In this document: positions 3,293-59,788 of the stretch, in pieces
Layout: every line of letters begins with the position of its first letter
Numbering within the stretch: the stretch's first letter is position 1
Assembly (NCBI GenBank): GCA_043821945.1
Contig: JBDRCH010000011.1
Span: forward strand, 1 to 59,788
DNA: 59,788 nt
DNA from: an archaeon
GTDB taxonomy: Archaea > Nanobdellota > Nanobdellia > Pacearchaeales > GW2011-AR1
Direction of reading: 5' to 3'
Position numbers and translations under genes: made by a program
The notes under the pieces: model-generated
Databases searched by the model: none
Told to the model about the DNA's origin: nothing
Seen by the model: the letters and a program-made list of their open reading frames with translations, nothing else

Positions 3293-3293
3293 C

Positions 3294-4289: not shown

Positions 4290-7105
4290 TAATTATATTC
4301 CCCTTCTTTAATTTTTGAAATTTCATCAGGAATCGATGTTTCTAAATATTCTGGATTTACTTTGATATCTGAATGGTATTGAATCTCCCATATTTTAATC
4401 GGTCCCTGAAATCCCTGGTAATATACAAATTCTCCAATATCAACACCTTGCGCCTTTAAATTTTTAATAAATAAATTATCCTCGCTGTGGGCTAATTTAA
4501 AATAATCTGATTTTTGATCAAATAAATATAATCTTGCTAATTGCGAATGTATTGTTCTTGAACTTAGATAAAACATTGCTCCTATTTTATTTACATTTGC
4601 TCCCCCTGATTGAATATCTATTCTAGGAAAGATAAATGCCCCTGCTTCAATCCCTTCTTGAAAATCAATCAAATTTCCATTAATATATAAATATCTTAAG
4701 GGAATTATATATTGATTTCCTTTGTAAAAATAAATTCCTTCAGCTTTTTGAACAATTTCTTCTGAATTTATCCTCACAATAACTGCTCCAAGTCCTGCGC
4801 CTTTTCTTGGCAAAAATATTTCTTTGTCATCTTGTATCCAGATTATATCTTCATCAACTGTGCTTCCTCCAGGGTAAACATAGATTGTTTCATTTTTTGT
4901 TTCTTGTGTTTGTTTTTCATCCATCAAAATAGTAGGGATCCATGAAAATCGGTCATAATTTTCATCTGAGCCAATACTTGAATAAGCAGTGTATTTTCCT
5001 ATTTCAGTTGAATCAATCAAAAGATGTGTTCCATTATGAGCATAAAGGAATTCTAATGCTTCTGATTCATTTGGCCCTGTTAAAACATATCTTCCCATCA
5101 AATGATTCCAATAACCAATACTATTTCCCCCATCAAGAATCGTGGCTCTTTTGCCTATTGATTGAAGCCAATAACCATAATCCCACCAATGTGCAAAAAC
5201 AGCATTTTCAGAAGTATTTTCTCTTACCCAAGCCATTGCATTTTGCCATTGCCATTGGTAACTTCCTGGAGCAAAATTATCTGCAGTTAATTTAATTTCT
5301 TGGTAATATCCTCCCCAACTCCAAAAGTTGGTTCCCTTAAACATTAAAAGAGGATTCCCAATGATAATGAATATGGAAGCAGTTAAGATCATTATCGCAA
5401 GAACCCCCATGAAAAATTTAAGAGAATCATCTTTTTCTTTAAAATATCTTTTAGAACTTTTAACAATTAAAAAGGCAATTGCAACAGGACTTATAGCTCC
5501 CAAAACCATAATTAATCTTATTCCACCTCTTGCACCAATAATTCCTAAGGTCAATATTATAAAATATAATATATAGGATATATTAAATTTTTTAAATATC
5601 TGAAAACCTCCTTCTTGATATTTTTTATAATAAACATATACCAAAGATCCTAAAAATAATATAACTCCTCCAAAGTAAGTCAATAAACTTAATCCGCTTG
5701 TTCCATTTAAGATGCTCTCTTGAGAATATCTACTAAATATCAAGCAAATTAAGAATATAAAGTAACTTCCTATAAGTATCAATTTTTCTTTTTTTGTTAA
5801 TCTATTTATTAAATTAGCAAATAATGTAATTGAACCTATAAAAAACAGCCAGAAAAATAAAGGGACATTAAACATTATGGGTCCAAAATTACTTTTCCAT
5901 TCACTTGCAAAATAAGGTTGTCTATTTTCTGCAACTGTTAAACCAAATCTTGATGTAGCAGGTGAGATCAAAGAGGATTTAACATGAGAGATTTGATTTA
6001 ATATAAAATTAGGTCCTAAAAAAATCAAAGCAATTAAAAATAAGAGACTTAGAACAAAAAGAACAGAGAATAATTCTTCAGAAATTTTTGTTTTTCTTTT
6101 TATTCCTTTTAATTTAGGGTTGTCTATTATTATAAATAAACTCATGGCAATAATAATGAAAACACTAATTGCAGATAGTGTCGAAGTAGAACTAATAAGA
6201 TTCATTAAAGAATATCTTGTAGAAAAAGGTATCATTGTCAAAAAAGACGAGATCATCCATAGGGAATAAATATAAAATTCATCTTTTTTGATCTTTCCAA
6301 GCAAAAATGCAAACAAAACAGTTAGGGGAATAGCAAAAAAAACAAAAATAACCCCTCCCCAGATTAATGCAAGAATGCCTGTAGTAAGTCCAGACAAAAT
6401 TCCAAAGATAAGACCTTTCTTTAAATTTTTAGAAGTAAATGCTTCTAAGAAAAGATAAAATGACATAAACATAAAAAAGAAAGCAGCAGATTCTTTTTCA
6501 GGAATTCCTGCTATTGTTCTCGATAATAATGAAGGAATAACAATGAAAAAAGCAGTCGCAATTAATCCGATTATATTTCTTGTATTTTTATCTTCTTTAT
6601 AGAAGATTTTCCTAGCAAACAGAAAAAAAGCTATTGTTGTTAATGCAAACATCACAACAGGGAATATAATTGCTGTATAAGTAACAGTCACTTCTTTTGA
6701 AAAAAATGAGAGAAAATGATAAAACCATGCAATCATATAGGAAAGCAATTTCATTTCTCCAGCAGTATTATATCCTATTGGGACATATCTCATCATATCC
6801 CACACCATCAATTTTCCATTCTGAACAATATCCTCAGCCCATCTTAGGAATAGAAAAGGGTCTAAATCAGGTCCTAATGTCCATGTTCCGGTAACAATAT
6901 CTTTTAATTTTGAAATGTTTCTTGTTCTAATATAAACACTTATAAAAACAAGAAATGAAAGAATCAGGTAATAAATCCAATCTTTTTTCTGTTTTAGAAA
7001 ATTGATGGTTTTATTTTTTCTATCAGAGAGGACATCATCTACAGAACTATTTAGATTTCCTAAGATGTTTGGGGTTATATTACTTTCCATTTTATTCTTG
7101 TTCAT
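4289..7105 (-). CDS. aglB: Archaeal oligosaccharyltransferase AglB (STT3 family)
   Basis: 938 aa with a multi-TM N-terminal half and the WWDYGYW catalytic motif (AHWWDYGYWLQSIG), followed by a soluble C-terminal domain. Confidence 0.9.
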   Translation of the reverse strand: MNKNKMESNITPNILGNLNSSVDDVLSDRKNKTINFLKQKKDWIYYLILSFLVFISVYIRTRNISKLKDIVTGTWTLGPDLDPFLFLRWAEDIVQNGKLMVWDMMRYVPIGYNTAGEMKLLSYMIAWFYHFLSFFSKEVTVTYTAIIFPVVMFALTTIAFFLFARKIFYKEDKNTRNIIGLIATAFFIVIPSLLSRTIAGIPEKESAAFFFMFMSFYLFLEAFTSKNLKKGLIFGILSGLTTGILALIWGGVIFVFFAIPLTVLFAFLLGKIKKDEFYIYSLWMISSFLTMIPFSTRYSLMNLISSTSTLSAISVFIIIAMSLFIIIDNPKLKGIKRKTKISEELFSVLFVLSLLFLIALIFLGPNFILNQISHVKSSLISPATSRFGLTVAENRQPYFASEWKSNFGPIMFNVPLFFWLFFIGSITLFANLINRLTKKEKLILIGSYFIFLICLIFSRYSQESILNGTSGLSLLTYFGGVILFLGSLVYVYYKKYQEGGFQIFKKFNISYILYFIILTLGIIGARGGIRLIMVLGAISPVAIAFLIVKSSKRYFKEKDDSLKFFMGVLAIMILTASIFIIIGNPLLMFKGTNFWSWGGYYQEIKLTADNFAPGSYQWQWQNAMAWVRENTSENAVFAHWWDYGYWLQSIGKRATILDGGNSIGYWNHLMGRYVLTGPNESEALEFLYAHNGTHLLIDSTEIGKYTAYSSIGSDENYDRFSWIPTILMDEKQTQETKNETIYVYPGGSTVDEDIIWIQDDKEIFLPRKGAGLGAVIVRINSEEIVQKAEGIYFYKGNQYIIPLRYLYINGNLIDFQEGIEAGAFIFPRIDIQSGGANVNKIGAMFYLSSRTIHSQLARLYLFDQKSDYFKLAHSEDNLFIKNLKAQGVDIGEFVYYQGFQGPIKIWEIQYHSDIKVNPEYLETSIPDEISKIKEGEYN

Positions 7106-7270: not shown

Positions 7271-8131
7271 TTAATTAAAGAAGATTGGAGTGAGATAAAC
7301 CTCCATAGCAGCAGCAAGAATTAAGATTATTATTGCTAAAAATAGTAATATAACCACATTTTCAACTACTCTCAAGAATTTTTTGTCTCTGAAACCATTT
7401 CTTATGACTCCTATACCAAAGATTCCTCCTGCTAATGCTGTGATAAAATAAGCTGTAATTTCTGGAAAACCATGAATCATATAACGAAAAAGACCAAATG
7501 GAATTTCTTTTATTTGATATTGGGTAAAAATTCCTATTGCAGCAGCAATCACACTTGCATTCCATATTAAGACAAATATTGCTCCTGCACCAAAAATAAG
7601 TGAGAATACCAGCGTGAAAATCATAACATAAACATTATTTTCTAGAATAGATAAAAATCTTACTTCTCTTGTTGCTGCACCAGTAGAAGTCAATTTTTGG
7701 GTAAAATCGTATTTCGCAACGCAATCTTCAATATTTCCTGGGTTGTTTATCATACAATAAGTTTTTAATTGAAAATTAAATAAATTAGAATTTTGCAAAA
7801 GGATATACCAAAAGGAGAATGCTATAATAAATCCTAAAAAAAGCCACATAAATCCATAAATTGCATCTTTATGAACTTTCCAGACACTGAAAAATCCCTC
7901 GACTTGTTCATCTTGTTCTGTTTCTTGTTTCATCATAAAATAAATATAAGGCAATGAGAACATGACACAAAATAAAACTACTAACATCCCAGATGCATTT
8001 GATAAAACAGGATCTTTTCCAAAAAACCAATGCACAAGCAAAAGTGAAAGCGAAGCATAAATAATTCCTACAAAAAACATTTTCCAAGGACCAGCTTCAG
8101 CACTTTTTGGGTTAATAATTGATTCTAACAT
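7271..8131 (-). CDS. SpoIIM-like (DUF95) integral membrane protein
   Basis: 286 aa, multi-TM. The C-terminal MIHGFPEITAYFITALAGGIFG is typical of the stage II sporulation protein M family. Confidence 0.6.
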   Translation of the reverse strand: MLESIINPKSAEAGPWKMFFVGIIYASLSLLLVHWFFGKDPVLSNASGMLVVLFCVMFSLPYIYFMMKQETEQDEQVEGFFSVWKVHKDAIYGFMWLFLGFIIAFSFWYILLQNSNLFNFQLKTYCMINNPGNIEDCVAKYDFTQKLTSTGAATREVRFLSILENNVYVMIFTLVFSLIFGAGAIFVLIWNASVIAAAIGIFTQYQIKEIPFGLFRYMIHGFPEITAYFITALAGGIFGIGVIRNGFRDKKFLRVVENVVILLFLAIIILILAAAMEVYLTPIFFN

Positions 8132-8182
8132 ATTTCTCTAAATTCAATACTACTTTTAAATATTTGTGAAAATTTACCAACA

Positions 8183-8190
8183 TTTTTATA
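8183..8190 (+). promoter_or_regulatory. Candidate TATA box for the eIF-2B-like gene (near-leaderless)
   Basis: TTTTTATA lies about 22 nt upstream of ATG 8212. AT-rich background makes this weak. Confidence 0.3.
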
Positions 8191-8211
8191 CTTTTGTTCT
8201 TATTTTATTTT

Positions 8212-9036
8212 ATGAAAAAAAAGAGGTTCACTAAAATAATAAAAGATATAAGAGAAATTAAAATTCAAGGAGCAACAAATATTGCTAAAAAAGCTCTTTA
8301 TGCGTATTCGTTAATTCCCATAGAAAAGTCAAAACAGATTTTGCTCAACACAAGACCTACAGAACCTATGATGGAAAAAGTGTTAAATTTAGTCGATAAA
8401 ATACCTAATGAAGAAATTTTAAAACATTTTAGTGAAACACAAAGTAAAATCAACAAAAGTGTTTTTAGATTAATCAAAAATAAAAATGTGATTTTTACTC
8501 ACTGTCATTCAACTAATGTTCTTAATGCTTTGATTTATGCAAAGAAAAGAGGAAAACATTTTGAAGTTTATAACACTGAAACGCGTCCGCTTTACCAAGG
8601 AAAAAAAACAGCAAGAGAATTAAAAAAATCAAATGTTAAAGTTACAATGTTTGTTGATTCTGCTATTGGGGTTGCATTGTCAAAAGAGCAAGGCACAAAA
8701 AAAGTGAACAAAGTCTTCCTTGGAGCTGATGCCCTTACAAAAAAAGGTGTGGTCAATAAGATTGGAAGTGAAGTAATTGCAAGAATTGCAAAACAAGAAA
8801 AAATTCCAGTTTACATTATTGCAGATTCTTGGAAATACACAAGAAAAAAAATTCCATTAGAGCAAAGAAAACTAAATGAAGTTTGGGACAAAGCTCCAAA
8901 GAATATTAAAATTAAAAACCCTTCATTTGAATTTATAAAAAAGAAATACCTTACAGGAATTGTTACAGAGATGGGACTTATGAAATATGGGGAATTTGTT
9001 AAAAAGGTTAGATATAATCTCCCAAAAAACTTATAA
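8212..9036 (+). CDS. eIF-2B alpha/beta/delta-family protein, probable ribose-1,5-bisphosphate isomerase
   Basis: ORF track starts at TTG 8194; ATG 8212 (MKKKRFTK) is more likely. Motifs ETRPLYQGKKTA, FLGADAL and VNKIGSEVIA. Confidence 0.65.
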   Translation: MKKKRFTKIIKDIREIKIQGATNIAKKALYAYSLIPIEKSKQILLNTRPTEPMMEKVLNLVDKIPNEEILKHFSETQSKINKSVFRLIKNKNVIFTHCHSTNVLNALIYAKKRGKHFEVYNTETRPLYQGKKTARELKKSNVKVTMFVDSAIGVALSKEQGTKKVNKVFLGADALTKKGVVNKIGSEVIARIAKQEKIPVYIIADSWKYTRKKIPLEQRKLNEVWDKAPKNIKIKNPSFEFIKKKYLTGIVTEMGLMKYGEFVKKVRYNLPKNL

Positions 9037-48301: not shown

Positions 48302-48919
48302 ATGAAAACCCTTTTCATATCTGCAAAATTAAAATCCAAGATAAATAAGTCAAAAATATTAGAAATCTCAAAAAAACTTCCCAAAAATATAGCAATTGCT
48401 TATTCAATACAGTATATAAATCATGCAAAAGAAATAAATGATTTACTTAAAAAAAATCATAATGTAACTAGATTTTTACAAGTATTAGGTTGCTCTAAAC
48501 CAGCACTTCCTAAATCAACTCAAGCAATACTATTAATAGGAGACGGAAAATTTCACGCAATTTCATTAGCATTTGAATCAAAACTTCCAGTGCACCTCTT
48601 GTCTCATAACAAATTAGAACTAATATCAAAAAAAGAAATAAAAACATTAGAGAAAAAACAAAAAGTAGCGCACCTCAAGTTCCTTCATTCAGATCAAGTA
48701 GGAATTTTAGTTTCAACAAAACCAGGCCAACAAAGTCTAAGCAAAGCACTTAAATTAAAAAAATCAATCAAAGATAAAAAATCTTATTTATTTCTTAGTA
48801 ATAATATAAACACTTCTGAATTTGAAAACTTCCCGCAAATTCAAAGCTGGGTAAACACAGCTTGCCCGAGGTTGGATATTGAAGGAGAATTTGTCAATAT
48901 GATTAAGATCAAATCTTAG
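48302..48919 (+). CDS. Short Dph2-like protein (diphthamide synthesis radical-SAM family, domains 2-3 only)
   Basis: VLGCSKP, IGDGKFHAISLA, VGILVSTKPGQ and NTACPRL resemble the central and C-terminal parts of Dph2. Only 205 aa and two Cys residues. Confidence 0.5.
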   Translation: MKTLFISAKLKSKINKSKILEISKKLPKNIAIAYSIQYINHAKEINDLLKKNHNVTRFLQVLGCSKPALPKSTQAILLIGDGKFHAISLAFESKLPVHLLSHNKLELISKKEIKTLEKKQKVAHLKFLHSDQVGILVSTKPGQQSLSKALKLKKSIKDKKSYLFLSNNINTSEFENFPQIQSWVNTACPRLDIEGEFVNMIKIKS

Positions 48920-49307
48920 TAATACTAAACACAGATTTCAATGCTACAATAATTGTTGCAGGTACAAATAAAATCAATAAAGCCCCCGATATTTCTTGTC
49001 CGAGCAATCCAATCTTAGTTATTCCTAATAATGAACCTCCTAATCTATCACTAAATCCTTCTAATCCAAATTTACTAACAATAACTATAACTGCTCCTGC
49101 AAGAAGAAAAGTGCTAATATCTTGATTTCTTATATTAATAGAACCAATCACAATTCCCATAATTATAAGTATAACATAAAATAATTGATTAAATTGAACA
49201 AATGCTTGAATAGAAAAAGATTTTATCAAAGCAATAGTTATAGCCAATATAACTCCAATGAGAAAAGCCCACGCTCCTAGATAATTCTCTTTTGATTTTA
49301 TTGTCAT
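48909..49307 (-). CDS. Multi-TM membrane protein, unknown function
   Basis: Likely start is MTIKSKENYLGAWAFLIGV (ATG 49307). Four hydrophobic helices. Confidence 0.5.
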   Translation of the reverse strand: MTIKSKENYLGAWAFLIGVILAITIALIKSFSIQAFVQFNQLFYVILIIMGIVIGSINIRNQDISTFLLAGAVIVIVSKFGLEGFSDRLGGSLLGITKIGLLGQEISGALLILFVPATIIVALKSVFSITKI

Positions 49308-49438
49308 CTTGTTATTTCCTTCGATAAATAATGATTTTAAAATATATAAATGTTTTGAAACCAAAACTTTGATTTTAATCATATATTTTACAAAACAGAA
49401 ATATTTATAAACCATAGTAACTGCAAAATGATTACAAA

Positions 49439-51265
49439 ATGAAAACAAAAAATTTATGTTTGATCAGTTTAAGCATTTTATTTTTGGTAATGTTCTTAAA
49501 CTTTGCAAGTGCAGCTGTGATAGCTGAATGGTCTTTAACTACAGATGGTTCTGCTTCAAATATTAATTCAAATTTAAATGCTGGAAGTTTTACAGGAACT
49601 TCAGAAGTTACATTTACTGATAATGGTGCTTCTGCAAGCAATTGGGCTACAGGAGTTATTGATGGAGCAAAATATTTTCAAATTACATTATCTCCAAAAA
49701 CAGGATATGACTTAACTATATCTAATATTAATTTTGGTGAGAGAAAATCTACAACAGGACCAGATAATTATCAAGTTCAATATTCAAAAAATTCTGATTT
49801 TAGTTCTTCTACTATAATCTCGACACAATCTATACCTGAAGATACTGATGAAAGATCAAGAACAATTGATAGTCTTAATATTAATGTAAATGAAGGAGAA
49901 ACAATATACTTTAGATGGTTTTCATATAATGCTGAGAGCACAGTAGGTACATGGAGAATCAATGATGGAACTTTGAATGTTGAAGGAACTTTAACAAGTG
50001 TAGTCTCAGATGAAGAGCCATCAGAAATAAATTCTTGCGAATTAACAGGAAATTCTGCTAATAATTTAAGAATAAAAAGTATTGATATAACAGATAAAGG
50101 AATGAATGGAGGATCAGAATCTGAATTTGGGGATGATGATGCTTGGTTTCTTCTTGATGATATTGAAGTAGAAATTAAAGTCGAAAATAAGGGTAACGAG
50201 GATATAGATAATGTAGAAATTGAATGGGGTTTATGGAATACTCAATCAAATGAGTGGATAATCGAGCTTGATGATGAAAAAGATTTTGATGTTAAAGATG
50301 ATGATTCAGAGATAATTACAATAAGTTTTAATCTTGAAGACTCACTTGATATTGATTTAGATGAATTAGATGATGGAAAGAATTATAGATTTTATGTTAT
50401 AGCAAATGGTTATGATAATGAAATAGAAGAAGATGTTTGTGCTAGTGATTTTGAAGAAATAGAAATTATAATTGAAAGTGACTTTGTTGTTCTATATGAC
50501 TTTCAATATCCAGAAAAAGTTTCATGTGGAGGAGATTTTCAGATTATAGCAGATGCTTGGAATATTGGAGATTCTGATCAAGATGATGTTTATGTTAAAG
50601 TGTTTAACTCAGAATTAGGAATTAATGAAAAAGTAGAGATTGGAGATATAGATGCTTTTGATAAGGAAGATTTTGAAATAACTTTAGAAATACCAGAAGA
50701 CACTGATGAAAAGATATATGCAATTGATTTTGAAGTATATAACGAAGACGATGATATCTTTGAAACAGACTTTGATGATGATTTAGCAGAGTTTAGAATC
50801 TTATTAACTGTTAGCGGAAGTTGTTCAATTGAAAAAAGTGCTCTTGTATCTGCAAGTTTAGAATCAGGAGGAAAAGCTGGAGAAGAATTAGTTGTTAGAG
50901 CAACAATTGTAAATACTGGAAGTGGTTCAACAACTTATAATATTAATGCAAAAGGATATTCAGATTGGGCAGATTCAGCTGAAGTTAATCCTGATATGGT
51001 TTTATTAAAAGCAGGAGAATCAAAGGATATTTTATTAACTCTTAAGGTAAATGCAAATGCTGTAGGAGAAAAAAACTTTGATATTGAATTAACTTCAGAC
51101 AATGAAGTAATATTGAAACAACCAGTTTCAGTTTCAATCGAAGGCTCACAAGGATTAAAGAATATAATTCCTGGAGACAATCTCTATTTATGGGGGATTG
51201 GAGCATTAAATATAATTTTAGTGATAATCATTATTATCGTGGCAATTAGAGTTGCTAGGAAATAG
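49439..51265 (+). CDS. Secreted acidic cell-surface protein with CARDB/NEW3-like Ig-fold repeats and C-terminal sorting-signal-like anchor
   Basis: N-terminal signal peptide (LCLISLSILFLVMFLNFASAAV) and D/E-rich beta-repeat domains. The C-terminus is IPGDNLYLWGIGALNIILVIIIIIVAIRVARK (motif, TM helix, basic tail). Confidence 0.7.
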   Translation: MKTKNLCLISLSILFLVMFLNFASAAVIAEWSLTTDGSASNINSNLNAGSFTGTSEVTFTDNGASASNWATGVIDGAKYFQITLSPKTGYDLTISNINFGERKSTTGPDNYQVQYSKNSDFSSSTIISTQSIPEDTDERSRTIDSLNINVNEGETIYFRWFSYNAESTVGTWRINDGTLNVEGTLTSVVSDEEPSEINSCELTGNSANNLRIKSIDITDKGMNGGSESEFGDDDAWFLLDDIEVEIKVENKGNEDIDNVEIEWGLWNTQSNEWIIELDDEKDFDVKDDDSEIITISFNLEDSLDIDLDELDDGKNYRFYVIANGYDNEIEEDVCASDFEEIEIIIESDFVVLYDFQYPEKVSCGGDFQIIADAWNIGDSDQDDVYVKVFNSELGINEKVEIGDIDAFDKEDFEITLEIPEDTDEKIYAIDFEVYNEDDDIFETDFDDDLAEFRILLTVSGSCSIEKSALVSASLESGGKAGEELVVRATIVNTGSGSTTYNINAKGYSDWADSAEVNPDMVLLKAGESKDILLTLKVNANAVGEKNFDIELTSDNEVILKQPVSVSIEGSQGLKNIIPGDNLYLWGIGALNIILVIIIIIVAIRVARK

Positions 51266-51394
51266 GGTTTCTTTCTCTAATCTTTTTTTCTAGAATATGA
51301 ATTTATACCCTCATTTGAGAAATCTTATTGTATTAGAAATACATAAAGCTGAGAAAGAATGTAAGAAAATAAAGTGCATAAACCTTAGTGAGAA

Positions 51395-51589
51395 ATGTTA
51401 CCAAATGTTAAAAAAAATTCTCCTAATCCAACATACTCTTTTAATAGAAAAGGAAAATTTTATGAAATTCCTTATGTTGTAAATGGAAATAATTCTTTAT
51501 TTGAAATAGAATTCTATGATGTGGAGAATCTCAAAAACATAATTCCAATTTTTCGATTTCCCAAACAAACTTATTTAAATCCCTCTTAA
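51395..51589 (+). CDS. Hypothetical protein (64 aa)
   Basis: ORF ends 11 nt upstream of the archaeosortase-like gene. It overlaps an alternative track ORF (51297..51482), so the call is uncertain. Confidence 0.3.
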   Translation: MLPNVKKNSPNPTYSFNRKGKFYEIPYVVNGNNSLFEIEFYDVENLKNIIPIFRFPKQTYLNPS

Positions 51590-51600
51590 CTTTTATTTTT

Positions 51601-52128
51601 ATGAAATCAAAAGAGGTTTATGATATTCTAATTAGATACTTAGTAATATTCTTATCAGCATTACCTCATTTTTGGATTTTTTACTTTATTTTTACTCCTC
51701 TCACTATTTATCCAGTTTACTTTTTATTAAAAATATTCTTTGATGTTTCTTTAAGTGGGAATATTATTTCTGTGTCTGATTATTCTATTGAAATAATAAA
51801 TGCTTGTGTAGCAGGTTCTGCATATTATGCATTATTAGTCCTTAATCTTTCAATACCTAAAATAAAAATAAAAAAAAGGATCAAAATGTTATTATTCGCA
51901 TTTGTTTCTCTCCTAACAATAAATATTTTAAGAATATTATTCCTTAGCATACTTTGGGTTTCAGGATCTTCTTTTTTTGATATAACCCATAAATTGTTCT
52001 GGTATTTTTTAAGCACGATTTTTGTAGTTTTAATATGGTTTACAGAAGTGAGAATATTCAAAATAAAAGAAATACCATTCTATTCAGATCTAAGTCATCT
52101 ATTTAAACATTCAATTCTGAAAAAATAA
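51601..52128 (+). CDS. Compact exosortase/archaeosortase-family protein (175 aa)
   Basis: Polytopic. Candidate catalytic residues are Cys69 (IINACVAGS), Arg111 (TINILRILF) and His130 (FDITHKLFW). The Cys-Arg spacing of 42 residues fits my recollection of the archaeosortase family. Confidence 0.6.
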   Translation: MKSKEVYDILIRYLVIFLSALPHFWIFYFIFTPLTIYPVYFLLKIFFDVSLSGNIISVSDYSIEIINACVAGSAYYALLVLNLSIPKIKIKKRIKMLLFAFVSLLTINILRILFLSILWVSGSSFFDITHKLFWYFLSTIFVVLIWFTEVRIFKIKEIPFYSDLSHLFKHSILKK

Positions 52129-52129
52129 A

Positions 52130-52750
52130 ATGCTTGATGGATTGCTAACTCAATTAACTCAGACAATATTATTAATAGTAAAAGAATTAGGTTATATTGG
52201 AATTTTTATAGGAATGACTATAGAGAGTTCTTTTTTTCCTTTTCCAAGCGAAGTTATCTTGGTTCCTGCAGGAGTTTTAGCTTCAAAAGGAGAAATGAGT
52301 ATCACTCTCATCTTTATAGCAGGATTATTAGGAAGCTTAGCAGGAGCAGTTTTTAATTATCTTCTTGCAATGTTTTTAGGCAGATCAGCAGTTGATTTGT
52401 TAATCTCTAAATATGGAAAGATACTTTTTCTGAGCAAAAGCAGTTTAAAGAGATCTGATGATTATTTCAATAAACATGGAGACATAACCACTTTTATTGG
52501 GAGATTAATTCCAATAATCAGACAATTGATCTCACTTCCTGCAGGATTTTCAAGAATGAACTTTCCCAAATTTATAATGTTTACAACACTTGGAGCAGGA
52601 ATATGGGCTATTATCTTAATCTATTTGGGATATTTTTTTGGGAGCAATTCTGAATGGATAAGTAATAATTTAAATGTAATCTCTTTTGGTCTTATGTTGT
52701 TTAGTTTGATAATATTTATTATTTATCTAAGATATAAAAAGAAAAAATAA
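52130..52750 (+). CDS. DedA/SNARE-associated family membrane protein
   Basis: ESSFFPFPSEVILVPAG and GRLIPIIRQLISLPAG motifs. Starts 1 nt after the upstream stop. Confidence 0.8.
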   Translation: MLDGLLTQLTQTILLIVKELGYIGIFIGMTIESSFFPFPSEVILVPAGVLASKGEMSITLIFIAGLLGSLAGAVFNYLLAMFLGRSAVDLLISKYGKILFLSKSSLKRSDDYFNKHGDITTFIGRLIPIIRQLISLPAGFSRMNFPKFIMFTTLGAGIWAIILIYLGYFFGSNSEWISNNLNVISFGLMLFSLIIFIIYLRYKKKK

Positions 52751-53362
52751 CTATTCTTTATTAATCTCTTTAAAAATTTCTATCATTAGTCTCTCTGTAA
52801 CTTCTAATACTTCACAATTAAATATATAAAGATCATAACAAGAAGGTCCAGGCATTTTTATTTCAGTTTTATTTCCAGGAATAAGTCTAATAAAAGTGTA
52901 ATCCCCATCCCAATTACAAGAAAGACTATCATTTTTTATAACTCTTGCCCCCATTCTTTCTAAAAGACTAGCAAGGTTTGCAATACCAATAATTTCATCT
53001 CCTTCACATCTGAATTCTTGAGTTGCATTAAACACAACATTTTCAAATATGTGCAATTCTCCACTAAGAGTAATTTTTTCACCAATTTTCCTTGGATCTT
53101 TCCTCAAATAAAAATTATAATCTCCAATAAAATTTCCTGTCACAGAATTTCCTTGATAAAGGGGAATACTCGTTCTATAAGGTGCAAGTTCGTCAACAAT
53201 TTCAAATTTGATTCCTTTGTATTCAAAATTCTTTCTTGAATCAAAAAAGATATAACTAACTAAAAAAACCCCAATAAATATAGCTATAAAAATTAGAAAA
53301 TTTTTTAATAATTTGTTTTGTTCATCTGAACTAGCATCTTTTTTCTGAATTTCTTCTCCCAT
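52751..53362 (-). CDS. N-terminally anchored extracellular orphan protein (203 aa)
   Basis: One TM helix (FLIFIAIFIGVFLVSYIFF) followed by a Cys-containing soluble domain. Confidence 0.5.
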   Translation of the reverse strand: MGEEIQKKDASSDEQNKLLKNFLIFIAIFIGVFLVSYIFFDSRKNFEYKGIKFEIVDELAPYRTSIPLYQGNSVTGNFIGDYNFYLRKDPRKIGEKITLSGELHIFENVVFNATQEFRCEGDEIIGIANLASLLERMGARVIKNDSLSCNWDGDYTFIRLIPGNKTEIKMPGPSCYDLYIFNCEVLEVTERLMIEIFKEINKE

Positions 53363-53396: not shown

Positions 53397-53954
53397 TTAG
53401 TCTACACTTAATATTTTAAACAGAAATTCATCTGTGATTTTAGTCAAATCTTCTTTAGGTCCTTGTATAAAAACACAACTCTGATTCTGGCTTATTTTAG
53501 TAATGTTATTTTCTTTTATTATAATAAAATTATCTGCACAATTTTTAATAGGAAGATTTTCTTCACCTTCTTCACCCTCTAAATAAGCTCTCCTCATTCT
53601 AAGGACAATTGGCTCGAGATTTCTGACTATTTCAATTTCAGATTCGCTATTTTCTGAAAAAATATAGAGGGGTTTGTTAAGATATTGATTAAGGAGATTA
53701 ACTTTGGAACCAATCTTTTCAACTTGTTTTGGATGATATTTAAATGCAAATATAAAATTTCCAATTTCTAAGAACCATAAATCTCCTTGGTTAGTGAATT
53801 CAAAACCATTGTGAATTATTTTTTTATTGCTTTCTTTTTCTTCTCCTTGAAAGGCATATCCTAAAACACTGATAAACATAACCCCAACTAAGATTAATCC
53901 TAAAACGATCTGTTTTGTTCTATTTTCTTTCTTTTTTGAAATTACGCTACGCAT
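53397..53954 (-). CDS. N-terminally anchored extracellular orphan protein (185 aa)
   Basis: One TM helix (IVLGLILVGVMFISVLGYAF) followed by a soluble domain. Same architecture as the downstream neighbour. Confidence 0.5.
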   Translation of the reverse strand: MRSVISKKKENRTKQIVLGLILVGVMFISVLGYAFQGEEKESNKKIIHNGFEFTNQGDLWFLEIGNFIFAFKYHPKQVEKIGSKVNLLNQYLNKPLYIFSENSESEIEIVRNLEPIVLRMRRAYLEGEEGEENLPIKNCADNFIIIKENNITKISQNQSCVFIQGPKEDLTKITDEFLFKILSVD

Positions 53955-54063: not shown

Positions 54064-56463
54064 TTAAGCAGTTGTTGTGACAAGTTCAGCACTTGTTGAA
54101 GATGTTCCTTTGTACTCTTTACTTGTATCAACAGTTTGAGTAGTTAGATACTTAGCAGCATTTACAGTGTCTGCAGCTTCGTAACCAGCAACAACTAATG
54201 CAATCTTTCCACTAGTGAAAGCATCGCTCACTCCTTTAATCAAGAATTCTCCTGACCCTACGCCAGTAGCAGTAGTGAATTCTGGACCACAAGTATGTGT
54301 TGCAACTCCTAATGCGGTTGCAGCAGCTGAATTAATACAACTTCCACCAACTATTATTAAGTTCTTTGAACTTACAGAGCTGATTTCATTGTCTTTAGCA
54401 AGCACACTTCCAAGTTGTGTAGTTGAACCAGTTGTTCCACTTGTACCAGGTGTAACTGTTGTATCAGGAGCATTCACATAGAATTCTCCATATGTCTCAT
54501 CACCATGATAGCTTAAAGTAGCTGAATATTGATCTCCACTCTTATCCCAGATTATTGATGTTGCAAGTTGTGAATACCAGTAACTCAACCATTTCTTGGT
54601 ATTATCACCATTTTCTGCAAATGTAACTGCTTCTCCAAGTATATCACTTACATAAGCTTCTGGAGTTGTAGCAGAATTCCATCCAAGTTGAACAGTGACG
54701 TTTTCTCCTTTACCAATATTTCCATTCTTATCTTCTTCAGAAAATGTAAGATTGAATGTTGTTTGTGCATCTGTTGAATTCCAGTAAAGATTACCGCTAC
54801 CCGCAGGTGCATTTGTTTGGTTAGCATACCAAGGCACATAAACTTGCATACCTTCTTTTGAATAAAGTCTGTTAAATTCAACATTGCTTCCACTTGCAGT
54901 GAAATTTACATTATTCACAGAAGCTCTGTTAATGATATTAATAGTTAATTCAACATTACCTACTGAGATAACATCTGCAATCTTTGCATCTACTTTTAAG
55001 TCAACCCACGCTCCATTTTTTCTATATTGGATTGTAGTCTTATTAGCTGTTGTTGATCCATCAACTAATCCAAAATTAGTAGCTCTCATTAAGTAAGATT
55101 CTGCATTTGAGCCATCATTATATGACACCAAGAACCAATCATCTGTATCTTTATCAAATACTAATTCTGATTCATTGCTTGTTCTTAATTGATGTGTTGA
55201 ATCTTTACCAACGCCAGTAAAATTAGCGCTATCCCCATAAATAATATTTATGTCTTCTGTGCTATCTTTTAATGGAAAATTTTCTAAAGTTGCATATGTT
55301 GTACTTCCTCCTCTAATCTCCATTACTTCTTCTGCGGGATATAAAATTCCTGCATAAGATAATTTAACTGCTTTAAAACCAGGCATTAAAATTTCACTAT
55401 CTGGAGCAAGGAATAATTCATCATCAGCTTTCCATTCAATAGCAATTTTGCTAATTGTAGCTGTAGCAGAAGATGTTGTAGTAATATAAGTTTTCATACC
55501 AGATATAGATTTATCATTTATTTCTACATCATAGCCGTGTTTAAGAACCAACTTACCACTTCCTATACTGAATTCTACTGTTTTTGTTCCTCCAGCATAA
55601 TCTTGAACACTTATATCTTTAATACCTACATAATCTCCACTAGATAATTTTTGAGTTTGTGCTTCACTTAAACTATTTGTTGTTTCTCCATCCACACTCA
55701 ACTTAACTTCTGCACTTGTTCCTGTTCCTCCAATAAACGCAATAGAAACTTCATGTCCATTAACAGTTTTTGTTTCTCCTTCAGCTAATGTTGTTGTTTC
55801 AGCAGCATCAAGAAGATTTATTGTGGTGTTTGCTGTATGGCTTAATATGAAATAGTTTTTTCCCATTATTTCAATATTCGTTGAATCCAAATCAGCCCAC
55901 TCAGGTTCATCAGTAAAATCTAATGTATAGTTCAATACGTGATCTGCACTAGCAATTCTCATTCCCAATGTAGGAGAATCAGCCTTGTAATCATCATCAT
56001 CAAACATCTTAAAAGTCAGGTTTGCAAGGTCTATTTTTTGAGTATAGTCTTTTTCATCGTTATCATCATCAACATATTTTCCATCTGCTAAGAGAATTGG
56101 AAGTCCTCCATTTGGACTATCATCAGTAATAGATGTAGATATAATATCTGCTATTCCTTTACCTAAGTTGAATTTGGTTGATGATTTCTCAATTTTAACA
56201 CTATCTCCACCACTAGCTGTTCCAGAGGTTGCACCTCCGCTAGCTAATCCCATATAAGATTGAAGGTTTGATTGAATGTCTCCTGCTTGAAGTATATCTA
56301 ATGTAGATACACCGTCTCCAGTACCATAAACAATTGCTACATTTGCACTCCCTCCTGACACAAAAGGTGTAGGATAATTTGCCGCAGCAGCAAATCCAAT
56401 ACTAGATACAGTCATTATTCCACTAGTTAATACAGCTGAGATCTTTTTAAAATTTATTTTCAT
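54064..56463 (-). CDS. S-layer protein (Methanococcales-type N- and C-terminal S-layer regions)
   Basis: Signal peptide, then AANYPTPFVSGGSANVAIVYGTG. The sequence is T/S/N/G-rich and beta-rich. The C-terminal NLIIVGGSCINSAAATALGV...IALVVAGYEAADT resembles the S-layer C-terminal module. Confidence 0.75.
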   Translation of the reverse strand: MKINFKKISAVLTSGIMTVSSIGFAAAANYPTPFVSGGSANVAIVYGTGDGVSTLDILQAGDIQSNLQSYMGLASGGATSGTASGGDSVKIEKSSTKFNLGKGIADIISTSITDDSPNGGLPILLADGKYVDDDNDEKDYTQKIDLANLTFKMFDDDDYKADSPTLGMRIASADHVLNYTLDFTDEPEWADLDSTNIEIMGKNYFILSHTANTTINLLDAAETTTLAEGETKTVNGHEVSIAFIGGTGTSAEVKLSVDGETTNSLSEAQTQKLSSGDYVGIKDISVQDYAGGTKTVEFSIGSGKLVLKHGYDVEINDKSISGMKTYITTTSSATATISKIAIEWKADDELFLAPDSEILMPGFKAVKLSYAGILYPAEEVMEIRGGSTTYATLENFPLKDSTEDINIIYGDSANFTGVGKDSTHQLRTSNESELVFDKDTDDWFLVSYNDGSNAESYLMRATNFGLVDGSTTANKTTIQYRKNGAWVDLKVDAKIADVISVGNVELTINIINRASVNNVNFTASGSNVEFNRLYSKEGMQVYVPWYANQTNAPAGSGNLYWNSTDAQTTFNLTFSEEDKNGNIGKGENVTVQLGWNSATTPEAYVSDILGEAVTFAENGDNTKKWLSYWYSQLATSIIWDKSGDQYSATLSYHGDETYGEFYVNAPDTTVTPGTSGTTGSTTQLGSVLAKDNEISSVSSKNLIIVGGSCINSAAATALGVATHTCGPEFTTATGVGSGEFLIKGVSDAFTSGKIALVVAGYEAADTVNAAKYLTTQTVDTSKEYKGTSSTSAELVTTTA

Positions 56464-56913: not shown

Positions 56914-57267
56914 ATGGCTAAAACAAAAACAAGAGAAATAACAATCACTGAATCCAAGGGGGCTTTTTCAATCTACAAAAAAACACCATTTTCAACAGAA
57001 GATTATGATTTTTCAGGAGTTTCTGTTCTAAGACAGCTTTTGAGCAATGAAAAAGCAAGAATCTTAAATGTAATAAAAAATCAAAAACCCAAGTCAATCT
57101 ATGAATTGGCAAAAAAATTAGGAAGAGGATTTAAATCAGTCAATGATGATATTAAGCTTTTAGTGAGATTCGGATTTGTTGAATTAATTGAAGAAAAAAC
57201 AAAAAATAGAATAAGACATAAACCAGAGATAGTTGTTGATACAATGATTATCCACTTAAGAATTTAG
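56914..57267 (+). CDS. Winged-helix DNA-binding protein (putative transcriptional regulator)
   Basis: ARILNVIKNQKPKSIYELAKKLGRGFKSVNDDIKLLVRFGFVEL fits an HTH-plus-wing pattern. Confidence 0.55.
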   Translation: MAKTKTREITITESKGAFSIYKKTPFSTEDYDFSGVSVLRQLLSNEKARILNVIKNQKPKSIYELAKKLGRGFKSVNDDIKLLVRFGFVELIEEKTKNRIRHKPEIVVDTMIIHLRI

Positions 57268-57740
57268 TAATAAGCTGTGAATACTATCTCTATATTCTCT
57301 TTTCCTAGTTCTTGCATGGAAGTTTTATAATTATTAGTAGAATTCCCCTCACTAAGATTTAAAATAATCTGTTCATTAGAATTAATGTACAAATAATACC
57401 CTTTCACAGGTCTGTCTCCATCAATTTTCCAACTTTCTTTTATTATCCTTTTTAGAGTATATTCTAAAACTTCGCACGTATCTTTTTGATTAAGACAAAT
57501 CTCTTTTCTATTACAATCTATTATTAATTTTTCAACTGAACGATATCTTGGTTCATATCCATCAACACAATCACTTGTATATTGTAAAACCGATTGAATA
57601 AAACTATCAATTTCATAACTCTCAAGAATTTCTTCCTTTGGGTTTCTTAGATAATAACTTAAAAAGATTAATCCAATAACAGCAACAACTATTATAATCA
57701 GAGCAAATCCTACCATCTCTTCTTGCGAGCGTTTTGACAT
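57264..57740 (-). CDS. Pilin-like protein with class-III-signal-like N-terminus, Cys-rich
   Basis: Likely start is MSKRSQEEMVGFALIIIVVAVIGLIFL (ATG 57740; the track ORF extends to 57806). Four Cys residues in the soluble domain. Confidence 0.45.
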   Translation of the reverse strand: MSKRSQEEMVGFALIIIVVAVIGLIFLSYYLRNPKEEILESYEIDSFIQSVLQYTSDCVDGYEPRYRSVEKLIIDCNRKEICLNQKDTCEVLEYTLKRIIKESWKIDGDRPVKGYYLYINSNEQIILNLSEGNSTNNYKTSMQELGKENIEIVFTAYY

Positions 57741-57799
57741 TGGGCAAATATTTTTCTTGCTAATTAATGTCAAGGCGCGAGTTCCTCTCTTAAATTTTT

Positions 57800-58414
57800 T
57801 TAACATTTTTCACCATATTCAGAACCAATAATAATCTTTGCAAGTTCGCATCTATCATAGATTTCTCCATCAAAAGATTCTTTTCTGCACAAAGAAACAA
57901 AATTATCTGAACTGACTCCTCCTTGTTTTGAAAAAACATTAATCAAATTGCAGTCAGGGTAATTTCCTTGATCACATACGCGATTAAAATCCTTAGGATA
58001 GATTTTTCTTATTTCAATGTTTGAAACCCCCCAAAAATCAGAATAATCTTTTATATTATTCCTTAAAGCCATAACTTTGTCTGCATCAATGCAATTAGAT
58101 CTGCTGCTACCAAAAACTTCTCCACATGAAAATTCTGGTGAATTTGCAAGTTTGGTTACTAATAATTTAGCATTTTTCTCACAAAGCTCTTGTGAAGATT
58201 CTTTTAACCCAGATAATGTAATCATTAAAAAGAACATTCCAACTAAAACAAAAAACAAGGTCACAGCTATTAACATAAAAGTCATTTGTTGAATTTTCAT
58301 TTGCGCTCGCTTACTTAGTGATTTCCTTAGAAAGCATTTTAAGAAATCGCCGTTCAGTGTTTTGAGGAAAATCGAAAAAAACCAGCTGGTTATTTTCATT
58401 ACCATAGTCTGCAA
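57800..58414 (-). CDS. Pilin-like protein, Cys-rich (start uncertain)
   Basis: SKRAQMKIQQMTFMLIAVTLFFVLVGMFFL is followed by a domain with 8 Cys. ATG 58300 is an alternative start. Confidence 0.45.
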   Translation of the reverse strand: MQTMVMKITSWFFSIFLKTLNGDFLKCFLRKSLSKRAQMKIQQMTFMLIAVTLFFVLVGMFFLMITLSGLKESSQELCEKNAKLLVTKLANSPEFSCGEVFGSSRSNCIDADKVMALRNNIKDYSDFWGVSNIEIRKIYPKDFNRVCDQGNYPDCNLINVFSKQGGVSSDNFVSLCRKESFDGEIYDRCELAKIIIGSEYGEKC

Positions 58415-59316
58415 TCTCCTATGCTATTCTTGTAGTCAATTTCTTCTACAAATTCTTTTATTAATGAAAGATCTGAAGAATCTTCTAATTTGTTTGCAAG
58501 GTTGCTTAAGGATACAAGATCAAGATTGGATTCACAACCTTTATTTGAAAGAAACAAGGCTTTTTCATGATATAGTTGTGCAAGATTATCAGTTCTTTGC
58601 ATGAGTCTTTTTACTTGACATTCATAAATATCAAAATCAGAAAAAATTCCAGCATACATTAAAGCATCTCCTTCAAAATAAACAAATTCTGAATTTTTCA
58701 ATATCCTCTTTTTTCCATATTCCACTCTTATATCACAATTTCCTCCCCCTCTAAAACAAACTCTTGTACTTTTATCAGAACAATTTTCAATTAAGAGGTT
58801 CTTCTGATTTAAGAACATTAATTCTTCTTGAATTTTTTCAGGAGCATCTAAAAAACAATATTCTTGTAATTGAGAAGTAAGATAAACTATATCAGTAATT
58901 TTAAATGAAAAATCAAATGACTTTGAAAAAATGTAAAAATCTTTTCCCTCAGTATATTCTTCTGAAAATATATATTTATTAGAAAATCCAACATCAATAT
59001 CTGTTTCAGTCCATTTTTCAAAGTTCTTTTGTGAAACCTGCACCAATTGTCTTCCAAAATTCCCATTAGTTCTGCATTTGTTGTATATTCTCGTTTCTGT
59101 GGGAAAGTTAATTGTTATGCTTTTTGCACTCTCAAAACCTATCTCAAGGGGATTTAATAAAAATCCAATCTCTTTTCCTGTTTTTGCGTCAGAAATTGTT
59201 TGTTCTGTTTTAATCAGCTTTGTAACAAAGAAAATCGCAAGAAATAATATAACTGCTCCAACTATAATTGCAAAAAGCCATGCAAATGAAATCTGAAGAT
59301 AAGCTTTTGAATTCAT
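58399..59316 (-). CDS. Pilin-like protein with N-terminal hydrophobic helix, Cys-rich (305 aa)
   Basis: MNSKAYLQISFAWLFAIIVGAVILFLAIFFV is followed by a soluble domain with 9 Cys. Confidence 0.45.
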   Translation of the reverse strand: MNSKAYLQISFAWLFAIIVGAVILFLAIFFVTKLIKTEQTISDAKTGKEIGFLLNPLEIGFESAKSITINFPTETRIYNKCRTNGNFGRQLVQVSQKNFEKWTETDIDVGFSNKYIFSEEYTEGKDFYIFSKSFDFSFKITDIVYLTSQLQEYCFLDAPEKIQEELMFLNQKNLLIENCSDKSTRVCFRGGGNCDIRVEYGKKRILKNSEFVYFEGDALMYAGIFSDFDIYECQVKRLMQRTDNLAQLYHEKALFLSNKGCESNLDLVSLSNLANKLEDSSDLSLIKEFVEEIDYKNSIGDCRLW

Positions 59317-59788
59317 CTTCCAATTAATACTAGTTCTTGATCATAATCTCTTTTAATAGTCAACTCAATTTTTCCGTCATTATTTTCAATACAAAAAGGA
59401 TTCTCATTTTTTGTCATTGTGATCAGATCAATATGTTTAATTTCAAAAGCATCTACACCTTCTGTAGAACCAACAGGATAAAAAATTAGATTTTCATATT
59501 CTTCAAAAGCTCTTTTTAATTTGCTATAGAGTTCTTTATTTTCCCCTCTTTCTCTATATGAGAAATCAACAAAACAAGCATATTCAATCTTTTTTGGAAG
59601 AGAATAACCTCCTGGTCTTGATAATGATCCAGATCCTCTCCATATTTTATCAATATCATTTTGCAGATCTTCTTTAAATAAGAATATTGTATCTCTTTGT
59701 TGACCCTCTATTAAAATTTTAATAACATAAAAAGCAAATGAAATAAAAACAATTATTAATATAATTGAAAATATCATTCCAAAGGATA
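59313..59788 (-). CDS. Pilin-like protein, N-terminus possibly outside window
   Basis: The frame stays open upstream of ATG 59777 to the window edge (...SFGMIFSIILIIVFISFAFYVI). 4-nt overlap with the downstream gene. Confidence 0.4.
   Translation of the reverse strand, partial: SFGMIFSIILIIVFISFAFYVIKILIEGQQRDTIFLFKEDLQNDIDKIWRGSGSLSRPGGYSLPKKIEYACFVDFSYRERGENKELYSKLKRAFEEYENLIFYPVGSTEGVDAFEIKHIDLITMTKNENPFCIENNDGKIELTIKRDYDQELVLIGR

Follow-up and report, generated by a model that had tools for sequence, protein, structure and literature searches.

We analyzed a 59,788-nucleotide stretch of archaeal DNA (the window), in which an earlier note, made from the sequence alone, had described an archaeosortase-like enzyme encoded beside a surface protein with a sorting-signal-like tail. 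Both open reading frames lie on the forward strand where that note placed them. The first encodes a protein of 608 residues (49439–51265) and the second a polytopic membrane protein of 175 residues (51601–52128).

The 608-residue protein belongs to the PACE-CTERM family of putative S-layer proteins. It scores 387.2 bits (cutoff 110; E = 1.6e-115) with model NF033506 (“PACE-CTERM-PROT, putative S-layer protein”), residues 4–608 aligning to model positions 2–627 of 627, and its homologs carry the NCBI name “putative S-layer protein.” The earlier description of an acidic protein with a signal peptide holds. The pI is 4.05, with 122 Asp and Glu residues versus 39 Lys and Arg residues, and the N-terminus is signal-peptide-like (MKTKNLCLISLSILFLVMFLNFASA, followed by A), giving a signal peptide of residues 1–25. 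The C-terminal end reads PGDNLYLWGIGALNIILVIIIIIVAIRVARK. The AF2 model (pLDDT 83.6) shows four β-sandwich domains (about residues 26–187, 210–345, 350–460, and 468–568), then a disordered linker (572–581) and a C-terminal helix (582–607). The only structures that a Foldseek search with this model retrieved were generic arrays of tandem Ig-like or macroglobulin-like domains, at a TM score of about 0.15. In the PDB, neither the 608-residue family nor a 799-residue protein encoded nearby had a significant match by profile or sequence search. The curators’ name, the tandem Ig-like β domains, and the signal peptide are consistent with a putative S-layer role.

A 335-nt spacer (51266–51600), close to the roughly 340 nt noted earlier, separates the stop codon of the 608-residue protein (51263–51265) from the ATG of the second gene. 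Read from the sequence, it contains a run of seven T residues just past the substrate stop (51283–51289), terminator-like for archaea, and a TATA-like element, TTATTTAAAT, at 51571–51580, about 25 nt 5′ of the sortase ATG. From pattern only, we infer terminator and promoter roles for these elements; a sigma-70 promoter and terminator scan was uninformative, as the host is an archaeon. An Rfam search of the spacer gave no match, and a PAP2 gene remnant sought there was absent. Two small ORFs within it (61 and 64 aa) are unsupported. In relatives, the spacer between the substrate and sortase genes ranges from 39 to 3,611 nt.

The 175-residue protein is a putative pacearchaeosortase, a polytopic membrane cysteine peptidase/transpeptidase. 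An HMM search had been set beforehand as the test of its archaeosortase identity, and the result is clear: the NCBIfam model NF033505 (“pacearchaeosortase”) scores 224.3 bits (cutoff 80; E = 9e-67) and aligns end to end (residues 7–171 to model positions 2–166 of 167). The exosortase/archaeosortase signature TIGR04178 matches residues 63–147 at 34.0 bits (cutoff 23), a span that includes Cys69, Arg111, and His130. These three residues occur in the contexts named previously, EIINACVAGSA, TINILRILFLS, and FFDITHKLFWY, and their candidate catalytic codons lie at 51805–51807, 51931–51933, and 51988–51990 of the forward strand. We aligned 130 diverse representatives of the family (34–58% identity), all of which match NF033505 and 119 of which also match TIGR04178. 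Cys69, Arg111, and His130 are the only invariant columns. In the AF2 model, with hydropathy and positive-inside loops considered, all three lie near the outer (extracytoplasmic) ends of their helices.

The spacing from Cys to Arg, proposed earlier to fit the family, is 42 residues here and 41 in ArtA (Cys173–Arg214, PMC9263693); our matching of the catalytic columns to ArtA is based on the signature-model match, this spacing, and the invariance of the residues. ArtA has a third critical residue, Arg253. Position 151 of the window enzyme is Lys or Arg in 79 of 130 sequences, and the family has no invariant counterpart of Arg253 at equal spacing. The suspicion that 175 residues is short for the family was mistaken, as the models for pacearchaeosortase, ArtE, ArtD, and XrtH have lengths of 167, 153, 150, and 158. 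There are 1,633 homologs, with database entries named “pacearchaeosortase,” and the nearest database relative is 71% identical. A family-specific motif, F-K-I-K-x-I-P-x-Y-S-D, lies toward the C-terminus. The Pfam model PF09721 (Exosortase_EpsH) scores 22.7 bits (E = 7e-5), below its gathering threshold of 25.7; this shortfall is a sensitivity limit of a general model on a divergent short branch. A PDB sequence search returned nothing at E ≤ 10, and a Foldseek search with the AF2 model returned nothing at E ≤ 0.001. The protein is thus best described as a putative peptidase or transpeptidase acting on its cognate signal.

That signal would be the C-terminal tail of the 608-residue protein (residues 578–608; 51170–51262, forward strand), which we defined with an alignment of 76 tails and a tail HMM. 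Its core, N581-L-Y-L-W-G-I-G-A-L-N591 (51179–51211, forward strand), opens the TM helix and is followed by the hydrophobic span and a basic end, R-V-A-R-K. Across the family, the signature is N-x-Y-L-W-G-I-G-x-L-N at the helix start with a later R-x-x-R-K, so that it occupies the first turns of the substrate’s only TM helix. Asn is conserved in 60 of the 76 tails, Tyr in 53, Trp in 66, Gly in 62, the second Asn in 70, and Ile in all 76, with Arg or Lys at the end; the YLWG core is missing in about 8. In an alignment of 30 substrate homologs, N581, W585, G588, and N591 vary little or not at all. The earlier likening of the tail to a motif–TM–basic design therefore stands in its layout, as signature, TM helix, and basic cluster at the extreme C-terminus are kept across homologs, but its “PGD” is not the conserved signature, since the Pro is variable. 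Of the window’s 70 ORFs that reach 100 aa, only two have a TM helix and basic tail at their C-terminus, those of the 608-residue protein and the polytopic DedA protein. Over about 1.1 Mb of related loci, the tail HMM finds exactly one ORF per locus. Comparing canonical and non-canonical tails with enzyme positions revealed no clean specificity position, using crude tail classes and phylogenetically non-independent sequences.

The proposed enzyme–substrate pair is well supported, as NF033506 is the curated partner family of NF033505 and the two genes are adjacent from either direction of search. Starting from the enzyme, the substrate gene lies directly upstream on the same strand in 60 of the 61 related DPANN loci with room for it. 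Starting from the motif, a metagenome scan yielded 31 genuine tails, and in all 30 testable ORFs among them the tail sits on a PACE-CTERM family protein (the remaining one is a 49-aa fragment). The sortase gene follows in 16 of the 17 metagenome cases with room downstream, and the single unpaired case carries a mobile-element insertion. The pairing and tail counts cover loci rather than whole genomes. Relatives with the pair are MAGs labeled Pacearchaeota, Woesearchaeota, and Nanoarchaeota. We found no other tail-bearing candidate substrate in the loci or among the 70 window ORFs. By these sequence comparisons, the pair behaves as a dedicated system of one enzyme and one substrate. Such 1:1 systems form a recognized class, and conserved adjacency is what defines it (Haft, bioRxiv 10.1101/2023.06.07.544157). 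A missing genome-wide partner set is therefore no refutation of the pair, and the earlier idea that a motif unique to one protein would count against it does not apply.

The pair sits in a conserved envelope cluster. A DedA/VTT-family membrane protein, a candidate lipid flippase/scramblase, is encoded at 52130–52750 (forward strand; Pfam VTT_dom, 83.9 bits, cutoff 33.9). As described previously, it is immediately adjacent, starting 1 nt past the sortase stop (...AAA TAA A ATG), and it is probably co-transcribed with the sortase. Its best NCBIfam matches are to the undecaprenyl-phosphate transporter UptA (NF052604 and NF052605), at 135.7 bits versus 250 and 118.7 versus 300. With both equivalog cutoffs missed, we rejected the UptA assignment and describe it only as a DedA/VTT family member. 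In 35 of 69 loci, including the window, the sortase gene is directly followed by a DedA gene, and a PAP2 phosphatase gene lies upstream in about 32 of 65 loci, the window not among them. Each thus occurs in roughly half of the loci; 17 of 65 have neither, so neither is obligatory. In one lineage, a CDP-alcohol phosphatidyltransferase is fused to the sortase; apart from this single fusion, we found no such enzyme near the sortase in 200 loci and the window.

Other neighbors are conserved as well. Upstream, divergent from the substrate gene, is a small polytopic membrane protein (48909–49448, reverse strand) with no Pfam or NCBIfam match, found at the same position in 47 of 50 loci; its true start is likely Met48, at 49307. 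Downstream, on the reverse strand, are two proteins with N-terminal membrane anchors and no family match, of 203 aa (52751–53362; conserved in 63 of 64 loci) and 185 aa (53397–53954; 56 of 56). We considered whether these two are paralogs, and any relation is undetectable (BLASTP E = 1.4). Beyond them lies the 799-residue secreted S-layer-like protein (54064–56463, reverse strand). Its match to Pfam S_layer_C is a stretched alignment of 27.8 bits (cutoff 23.9). The protein carries a signal peptide and 11 N-glycosylation sequons and lacks a membrane anchor. Its gene is present in 39 of 39 loci, and a C-terminal TM segment is absent from all 57 homologs. We regard the protein as a candidate outer-lattice partner for an anchored 608-residue protein.

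Taken together, we consider it likely, with a probability of roughly 0.8, that this is a pacearchaeosortase with a single dedicated PACE-CTERM putative S-layer substrate in a DPANN (Pacearchaeota/Woesearchaeota-type) archaeon, including the following processing model. By homology to ArtA of Haloferax volcanii, the 608-residue protein would leave the cell through Sec, its C-terminal helix serving as a temporary hold. The signature would be recognized at the membrane surface by the Cys69/Arg111/His130 site in the outer leaflet and cleaved through a thioester on Cys69. Attack by an amine nucleophile, most probably an ethanolamine-type archaeal lipid, would then resolve the intermediate, exchanging the peptide helix for a covalent lipid anchor. 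The DedA protein could plausibly supply or recycle the outer-leaflet lipid, either an ethanolamine lipid or polyprenyl phosphate, and the anchored 608-residue and anchorless 799-residue proteins would probably build the cell envelope jointly. For this pair, we infer cleavage, the cleavage site, and lipid attachment from the ArtA precedent. DPANN archaea are generally held to be incapable of complete lipid synthesis, and we counted this against the lipid-anchor model.

The enzyme might instead act only as a protease, which we judge unlikely. The tail would be cut hydrolytically and the 608-residue protein released, to be held at the surface through S-layer contacts and with no lipid. Even for ArtA, one-step transpeptidation is an unsettled question (Haft, bioRxiv 10.1101/2023.06.07.544157), and hydrolysis would also suit the loci with neither DedA nor PAP2 and a 59.8-kb window in which we found no phosphatidylserine synthase or decarboxylase gene. 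On the other hand, the 799-residue neighbor and its homologs have no anchor of their own, so the envelope must be tethered by something. The Cys/Arg/His set is the trio of transpeptidating sortases, and the phosphatidyltransferase fusion and frequent lipid-gene neighbors point to a lipid partner. If an acyl-enzyme does form, it could be resolved onto a polyprenyl-phosphate-linked glycan or an envelope protein such as the 799-residue protein, a quite improbable outcome in our estimate. Transfer to such a non-phospholipid acceptor would resemble the pilin-polymerizing sortases or the proposed link between PEP-CTERM proteins and exopolysaccharide. The sub-threshold UptA match of the DedA protein, the PAP2 lipid-phosphate phosphatases found beside the sortase at roughly half of the loci, and the constant co-clustering of the 799-residue protein all fit an acceptor of this kind. 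However, AglB is encoded in the window, so ordinary recycling of dolichol phosphate for its N-glycosylation is an equally possible role of DedA and PAP2, and phosphatidylethanolamine is another lipid that DedA proteins transport (PetA, PMC10193950). ArtA, the only characterized homolog, gives a lipid anchor.

The tail could also be a permanent TM anchor, with the adjacent sortase acting elsewhere or being a mere conserved neighbor. There is a precedent in Sulfolobus SlaB, an archaeal S-layer stalk that is permanently TM-anchored (PMC6098224), and about 8 of the 76 tails lack the signature core. Yet a passive anchor would need far less conservation than the helix and its start show (N, W, G, N, and the invariant Ile), the two genes are paired almost everywhere whether the search starts from the enzyme or the motif, and the loci offer the sortase no other tail-bearing candidate substrate. 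We therefore regard a permanent anchor as barely credible.

The sortase with its one processed substrate may be the core of something larger, a conserved DPANN envelope-biogenesis module with a lipid-tethered stalk whose lipid is not self-made but host-derived or delivered by DedA/PAP2. This extension is tentative, and we hold it to be rather doubtful. The module would run in order from the small TM protein through the 608-residue “stalk,” the sortase, an optional PAP2 and/or DedA, and the two N-anchored proteins to the 799-residue “canopy.” If the stalk’s lipid is indeed scavenged, S-layer anchoring would depend on lipid scavenging.

The pair itself is already known. Both proteins belong to curated, automatically annotated families in the NCBI protein-family library, so this is a rediscovery and not a new system. 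The NCBI annotation pipeline would assign both names by itself, which leaves little added as discovery. A full-text literature search for the names pacearchaeosortase, PACE-CTERM, and paceosortase found no paper. The analysis adds context, namely the true tail signature, the strict 1:1 pairing seen from both directions, the envelope cluster, and the lipid-gene neighbors with the fusion. The enzyme, found in uncultured, host-dependent DPANN archaea, is about the smallest version of its kind and is paired with a single substrate. The pair would therefore make a clean minimal model for exosortase-type enzymes, serving the questions of how a signal is recognized and cleaved within the membrane and whether such enzymes are true transpeptidases.

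Compared with the NF033505/NF033506 pair as curated, both window proteins are full-length members with the same adjacency in the same taxa. Nothing essential differs; the window lacks the PAP2 gene that lies between the two in about half of relatives. The nearest characterized system is ArtA/PGF-CTERM of H. volcanii, in which Cys173 and Arg214 of ArtA are experimentally critical (PMC9263693). The two share the TIGR04178 superfamily, a polytopic enzyme, the near-equal Cys–Arg spacing, a tripartite signal with the motif abutting a TM helix, an S-layer protein substrate (putative here), and a genomic association with enzymes of phospholipid head groups. The lipid-gene neighbors and the fusion at pacearchaeosortase loci parallel the juxtaposition of artA with pssA and the dependence of ArtA lipidation on PssA/PssD (PMC7157517). 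ArtA differs in size (a 912-bp gene, about 300 aa, versus 175), in substrate number (nine in H. volcanii and up to 52 elsewhere, versus one), and in signature (PGF versus N-x-YLWGIG-x-LN). The window enzyme scores far below the ArtA model, which only 2 of the 130 family members touch.

The short-form archaeosortases and exosortases (ArtE TIGR04124, ArtD TIGR04175, XrtH TIGR04177, XrtX, and heimdallarchaeosortase) share the compact size of about 150–170 residues. The alignment with ArtE is colinear (residues 6–152 to model positions 5–150 of 153, E = 4.7e-10), but the window sortase falls below all of their cutoffs (for ArtE, 39.7 versus 95). By these model scores, it is a sister branch of the short forms and not a member. 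JDVT-CTERM/MrtJ likewise has one target per genome beside its processing enzyme, evidenced by a conserved two-gene neighborhood, but that enzyme is of the Rce1/CPBP type rather than the exosortase type and its motif is unrelated. Finally, the two-component SlaB/SlaA S-layer of Sulfolobus, a stalk with an anchorless canopy, has no detected sequence or fold relationship to the window proteins, whose S-layer roles are putative. It offers a functional analogy only, for 608- and 799-residue proteins that are always encoded together.

ORF calling recovered three reading frames exactly as the earlier note had described them: the 608-aa substrate (49439–51265, + strand), the 175-aa sortase (51601–52128, +), and a 206-aa DedA protein (52130–52750, +). 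The gap between the substrate and sortase genes is 335 nt, and the DedA gene, which had been called translationally adjacent, starts one base past the sortase stop codon. We then searched the sortase against the archaeosortase HMMs. It matches NCBIfam NF033505, “pacearchaeosortase,” over its whole length at 224.3 bits (cutoff 80; E = 9e-67), and it passes the exosortase/archaeosortase signature TIGR04178 at residues 63–147 (34 bits against a cutoff of 23). The substrate matches NF033506, “PACE-CTERM-PROT, putative S-layer protein,” end to end at 387.2 bits (cutoff 110). Identification by Pfam alone would have been equivocal, with Exosortase_EpsH under threshold at 22.7 against 25.7. In NCBIfam comparisons, the sortase aligns colinearly with the short-form enzymes ArtE, ArtD, XrtH, and XrtX, with scores below threshold. 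The enzyme has 1633 relatives in the protein database; most are 170–190 aa long, and NCBI names some of them pacearchaeosortase. For relatives of the substrate, the name given is “putative S-layer protein.” The pair therefore belongs to a family that is already curated and automatically annotated, and at 175 aa the sortase has the usual length for it rather than being short, as had been supposed. Among the papers searched, none uses the family names, and knowledge of the pair is database curation. The earlier note thus read the sequence correctly but rediscovered a family that was already known.

Cys69, Arg111, and His130 of the sortase were found in the contexts quoted by the earlier note. 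When just 24 close homologues were compared, invariant columns were many; among 130 representatives (from a library clustered at 50% identity, 34–58% identical to the query, all 130 matching NF033505), exactly these three columns are invariant. N108, W146, P159, D163, and R12 are nearly so. A family-specific C-terminal motif, F-K-I-K-x-I-P-x-Y-S-D (residues 153–163, predicted cytoplasmic), is not part of the stretch that the generic exosortase signature covers; its P159 is retained in 129/130 and its D163 in 128/130 sequences. In an AF2 model (pLDDT 74), a long helix at the N-terminus precedes a β-hairpin (49–64) and helices at 70–83, 90–120, and 126–152. The basic loops 86–95 and 151–156 are presumably cytoplasmic, which would place C69, R111, and H130 near the outer-leaflet ends of the helices. 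Neither a PDB sequence search nor Foldseek returned a solved structure resembling the model.

Next, we examined the pairing from both sides. Starting from the enzyme and taking a single genome for each species, we obtained 80 loci, and almost every one belongs to a MAG that carries a Pacearchaeota, Woesearchaeota, or Nanoarchaeota label. Flanking DNA sufficed to judge gene order in 61 loci: 60 have the substrate gene upstream of the sortase and co-oriented with it, and one has it adjacent but inverted. Three loci carry the archaeal cluster under bacterial MAG names (L033, Collierbacteria; L060, Vicingus; L079, Patescibacteria), which are probably binning or labelling errors. A motif-first scan, running a degenerate DNA pattern for Y-L-W-G-I-G-x-L-N over metagenome contigs, found 31 genuine tails, each at the C-terminus of an ORF. 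All 30 ORFs of testable length belong to the substrate family, the other (L168) being a 49-aa fragment. The sortase follows in 16/17 of these loci having at least 1.5 kb downstream; the exception, L084, has an insertion of >6 kb behind the substrate gene. This block (L084:5635–11527), which carries a serine recombinase (7808–8464) and lysine-rich repeat proteins, takes the usual place of the sortase and probably represents an integrated mobile element or provirus. A tail HMM matched exactly one ORF per locus in ~1.1 Mb of loci, and no other window protein, the polytopic DedA excepted, ends in a TM helix and basic tail. Such pairing fits Haft's definition of a dedicated one-to-one sorting system (bioRxiv 10.1101/2023.06.07.544157). 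Therefore, a missing genome-wide partner set, which had been held in advance against the proposal, does not count against the pair.

The substrate has a signal-peptide-like N-terminus and a pI of 4.05, as expected of the acidic surface protein proposed, and it ends in PGDNLYLWGIGALNIILVIIIIIVAIRVARK. We aligned the last 40 residues of substrates from 75 related loci, giving the consensus G-[IL]-T-G-x(3-5)-[GE]-[DG]-N-W-Y-L-W-G-I-G-x-L-N-[VIL]-I-L-...-I-I-x-V-A-V-R-[VI]-A-R-K. Strongly conserved are N581, Y583, W585, G588, N591, an invariant Ile inside the helix, and the terminal R-x-x-R-K. The motif–TM–basic tail design put forward earlier holds, but “PGD” is not its signature, as the Pro is not conserved. 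An AF2 model (pLDDT 83.6) shows four β-sandwich domains, a disordered linker (572–581), and a helix (582–607), so the signature, as modelled, opens the TM helix without a spacer. Signals that membrane-embedded enzymes cleave have been described with this layout (Haft, bioRxiv 10.1101/2023.06.07.544157).

The pair belongs to a conserved gene cluster in the order prefoldin, SepF, (Dph2), small TM protein (−), substrate (+), sortase (+), optional DedA (+), and 203-, 185-, and 799-aa proteins (all −). Among loci with room, the small TM protein (window 48909–49448) is present in 47/50, the 203-aa protein (52751–53362) in 63/64, the 185-aa protein (53397–53954) in 56/56, and the 799-aa protein (54064–56463) in 39/39. 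The first three are membrane-anchored, have zero matches in Pfam and NCBIfam, and are candidate envelope-assembly factors. The 799-aa protein is secreted, with a signal peptide and 11 N-X-S/T sequons, and weakly passes Pfam S_layer_C; no C-terminal anchor was found in any of 57 homologues. Its conserved C-terminal motif is VAGYEAADTVNAA.YL.TQ.VDT...YKGTS. One anchored and one anchorless protein suggest a two-component envelope. The substrate has 0 sequons against 7.2 expected from composition, and 30 homologues (alignment A3) have ~77 against ~190 expected; set against the 11 in its 799-aa neighbour, this deficit suggests that N-glycosylation of the anchored protein is selected against.

The window DNA is archaeal (G+C ~29%), with AglB/STT3, SecY, a ribosomal-protein operon, FtsZ, SepF, prefoldin beta, L37ae, Dph2, and two tRNAs. 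An N-glycosylation cluster (636–7105) comprises a polysaccharide deacetylase, a methyltransferase, GT2, GT4 (3294–4289, −), and the 938-aa oligosaccharyltransferase AglB/STT3 (4289–7105, −). The Dph2-like diphthamide-synthesis ORF (48302–48919, +) is just 205 aa, covers Pfam model positions 64–272 of 302, and is thus missing its N-terminal portion; many related loci have a similarly sized homologue in the corresponding position. At 57264–59777 (−), four ORFs in a row with partial overlaps (180, 204, 305, and 154 aa) gave nothing in Pfam at E ≤ 1e-5.

By homology to archaeosortase A (ArtA) of Haloferax volcanii, Sec would export the substrate, the C-terminal helix would anchor it transiently, the signature would be recognised at the outer leaflet, and Cys69 would mediate cleavage, with transfer to an amine lipid. 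The sortase might instead release the substrate by hydrolysis or pass it to a polyprenyl-linked or protein acceptor; we consider both less likely. The YLWG core is missing from ~8/76 tails, which keep the helix and basic end; that the tail is simply a permanent TM anchor also seems the less likely reading. 

Lipid-handling genes recur near the sortase. DedA lies immediately 3′ in 35/69 loci with room, the window included. DedA proteins flip undecaprenyl phosphate and also phosphatidylethanolamine (PMC10193950); the window DedA does not reach the NCBIfam UptA cutoffs. Independent of DedA, a divergent PAP2 membrane phosphatase (~205 aa, Pfam 74–77 bits) lies between substrate and sortase in ~32/65 loci (L002:375–989, L009:9314–9943, and L054:9335–9940, all −, and ~30 further loci). 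It is absent from the window, and no remnant was found in the 335-nt spacer. In one lineage, a CDP-alcohol phosphatidyltransferase (pgsA/pssA-like) is fused to pacearchaeosortase in a continuous ORF (L201:142–1179, +; protein P0268), seen on one 3-kb metagenome contig and possibly an assembly artefact, with a DedA gene ~700 nt away.

The pacearchaeosortase pair offers a minimal enzyme–substrate model. Cys173 and Arg214 of ArtA are critical by mutagenesis (PMC9263693) and are spaced by 41, against 42 for Cys–Arg in the sortase. For Arg253, the third residue critical in ArtA, no sortase column is an invariant equivalent: position 151 is K/R in 79/130 sequences. We infer the residue-level match. 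The genes artA, pssA, and pssD are juxtaposed in Methanosarcina; ArtA-mediated lipidation depends on PssA/PssD, and an archaetidylethanolamine nucleophile is proposed to attack the Cys thioester (PMC7157517). The lipid-gene neighbours of pacearchaeosortase echo both this juxtaposition and this dependence.
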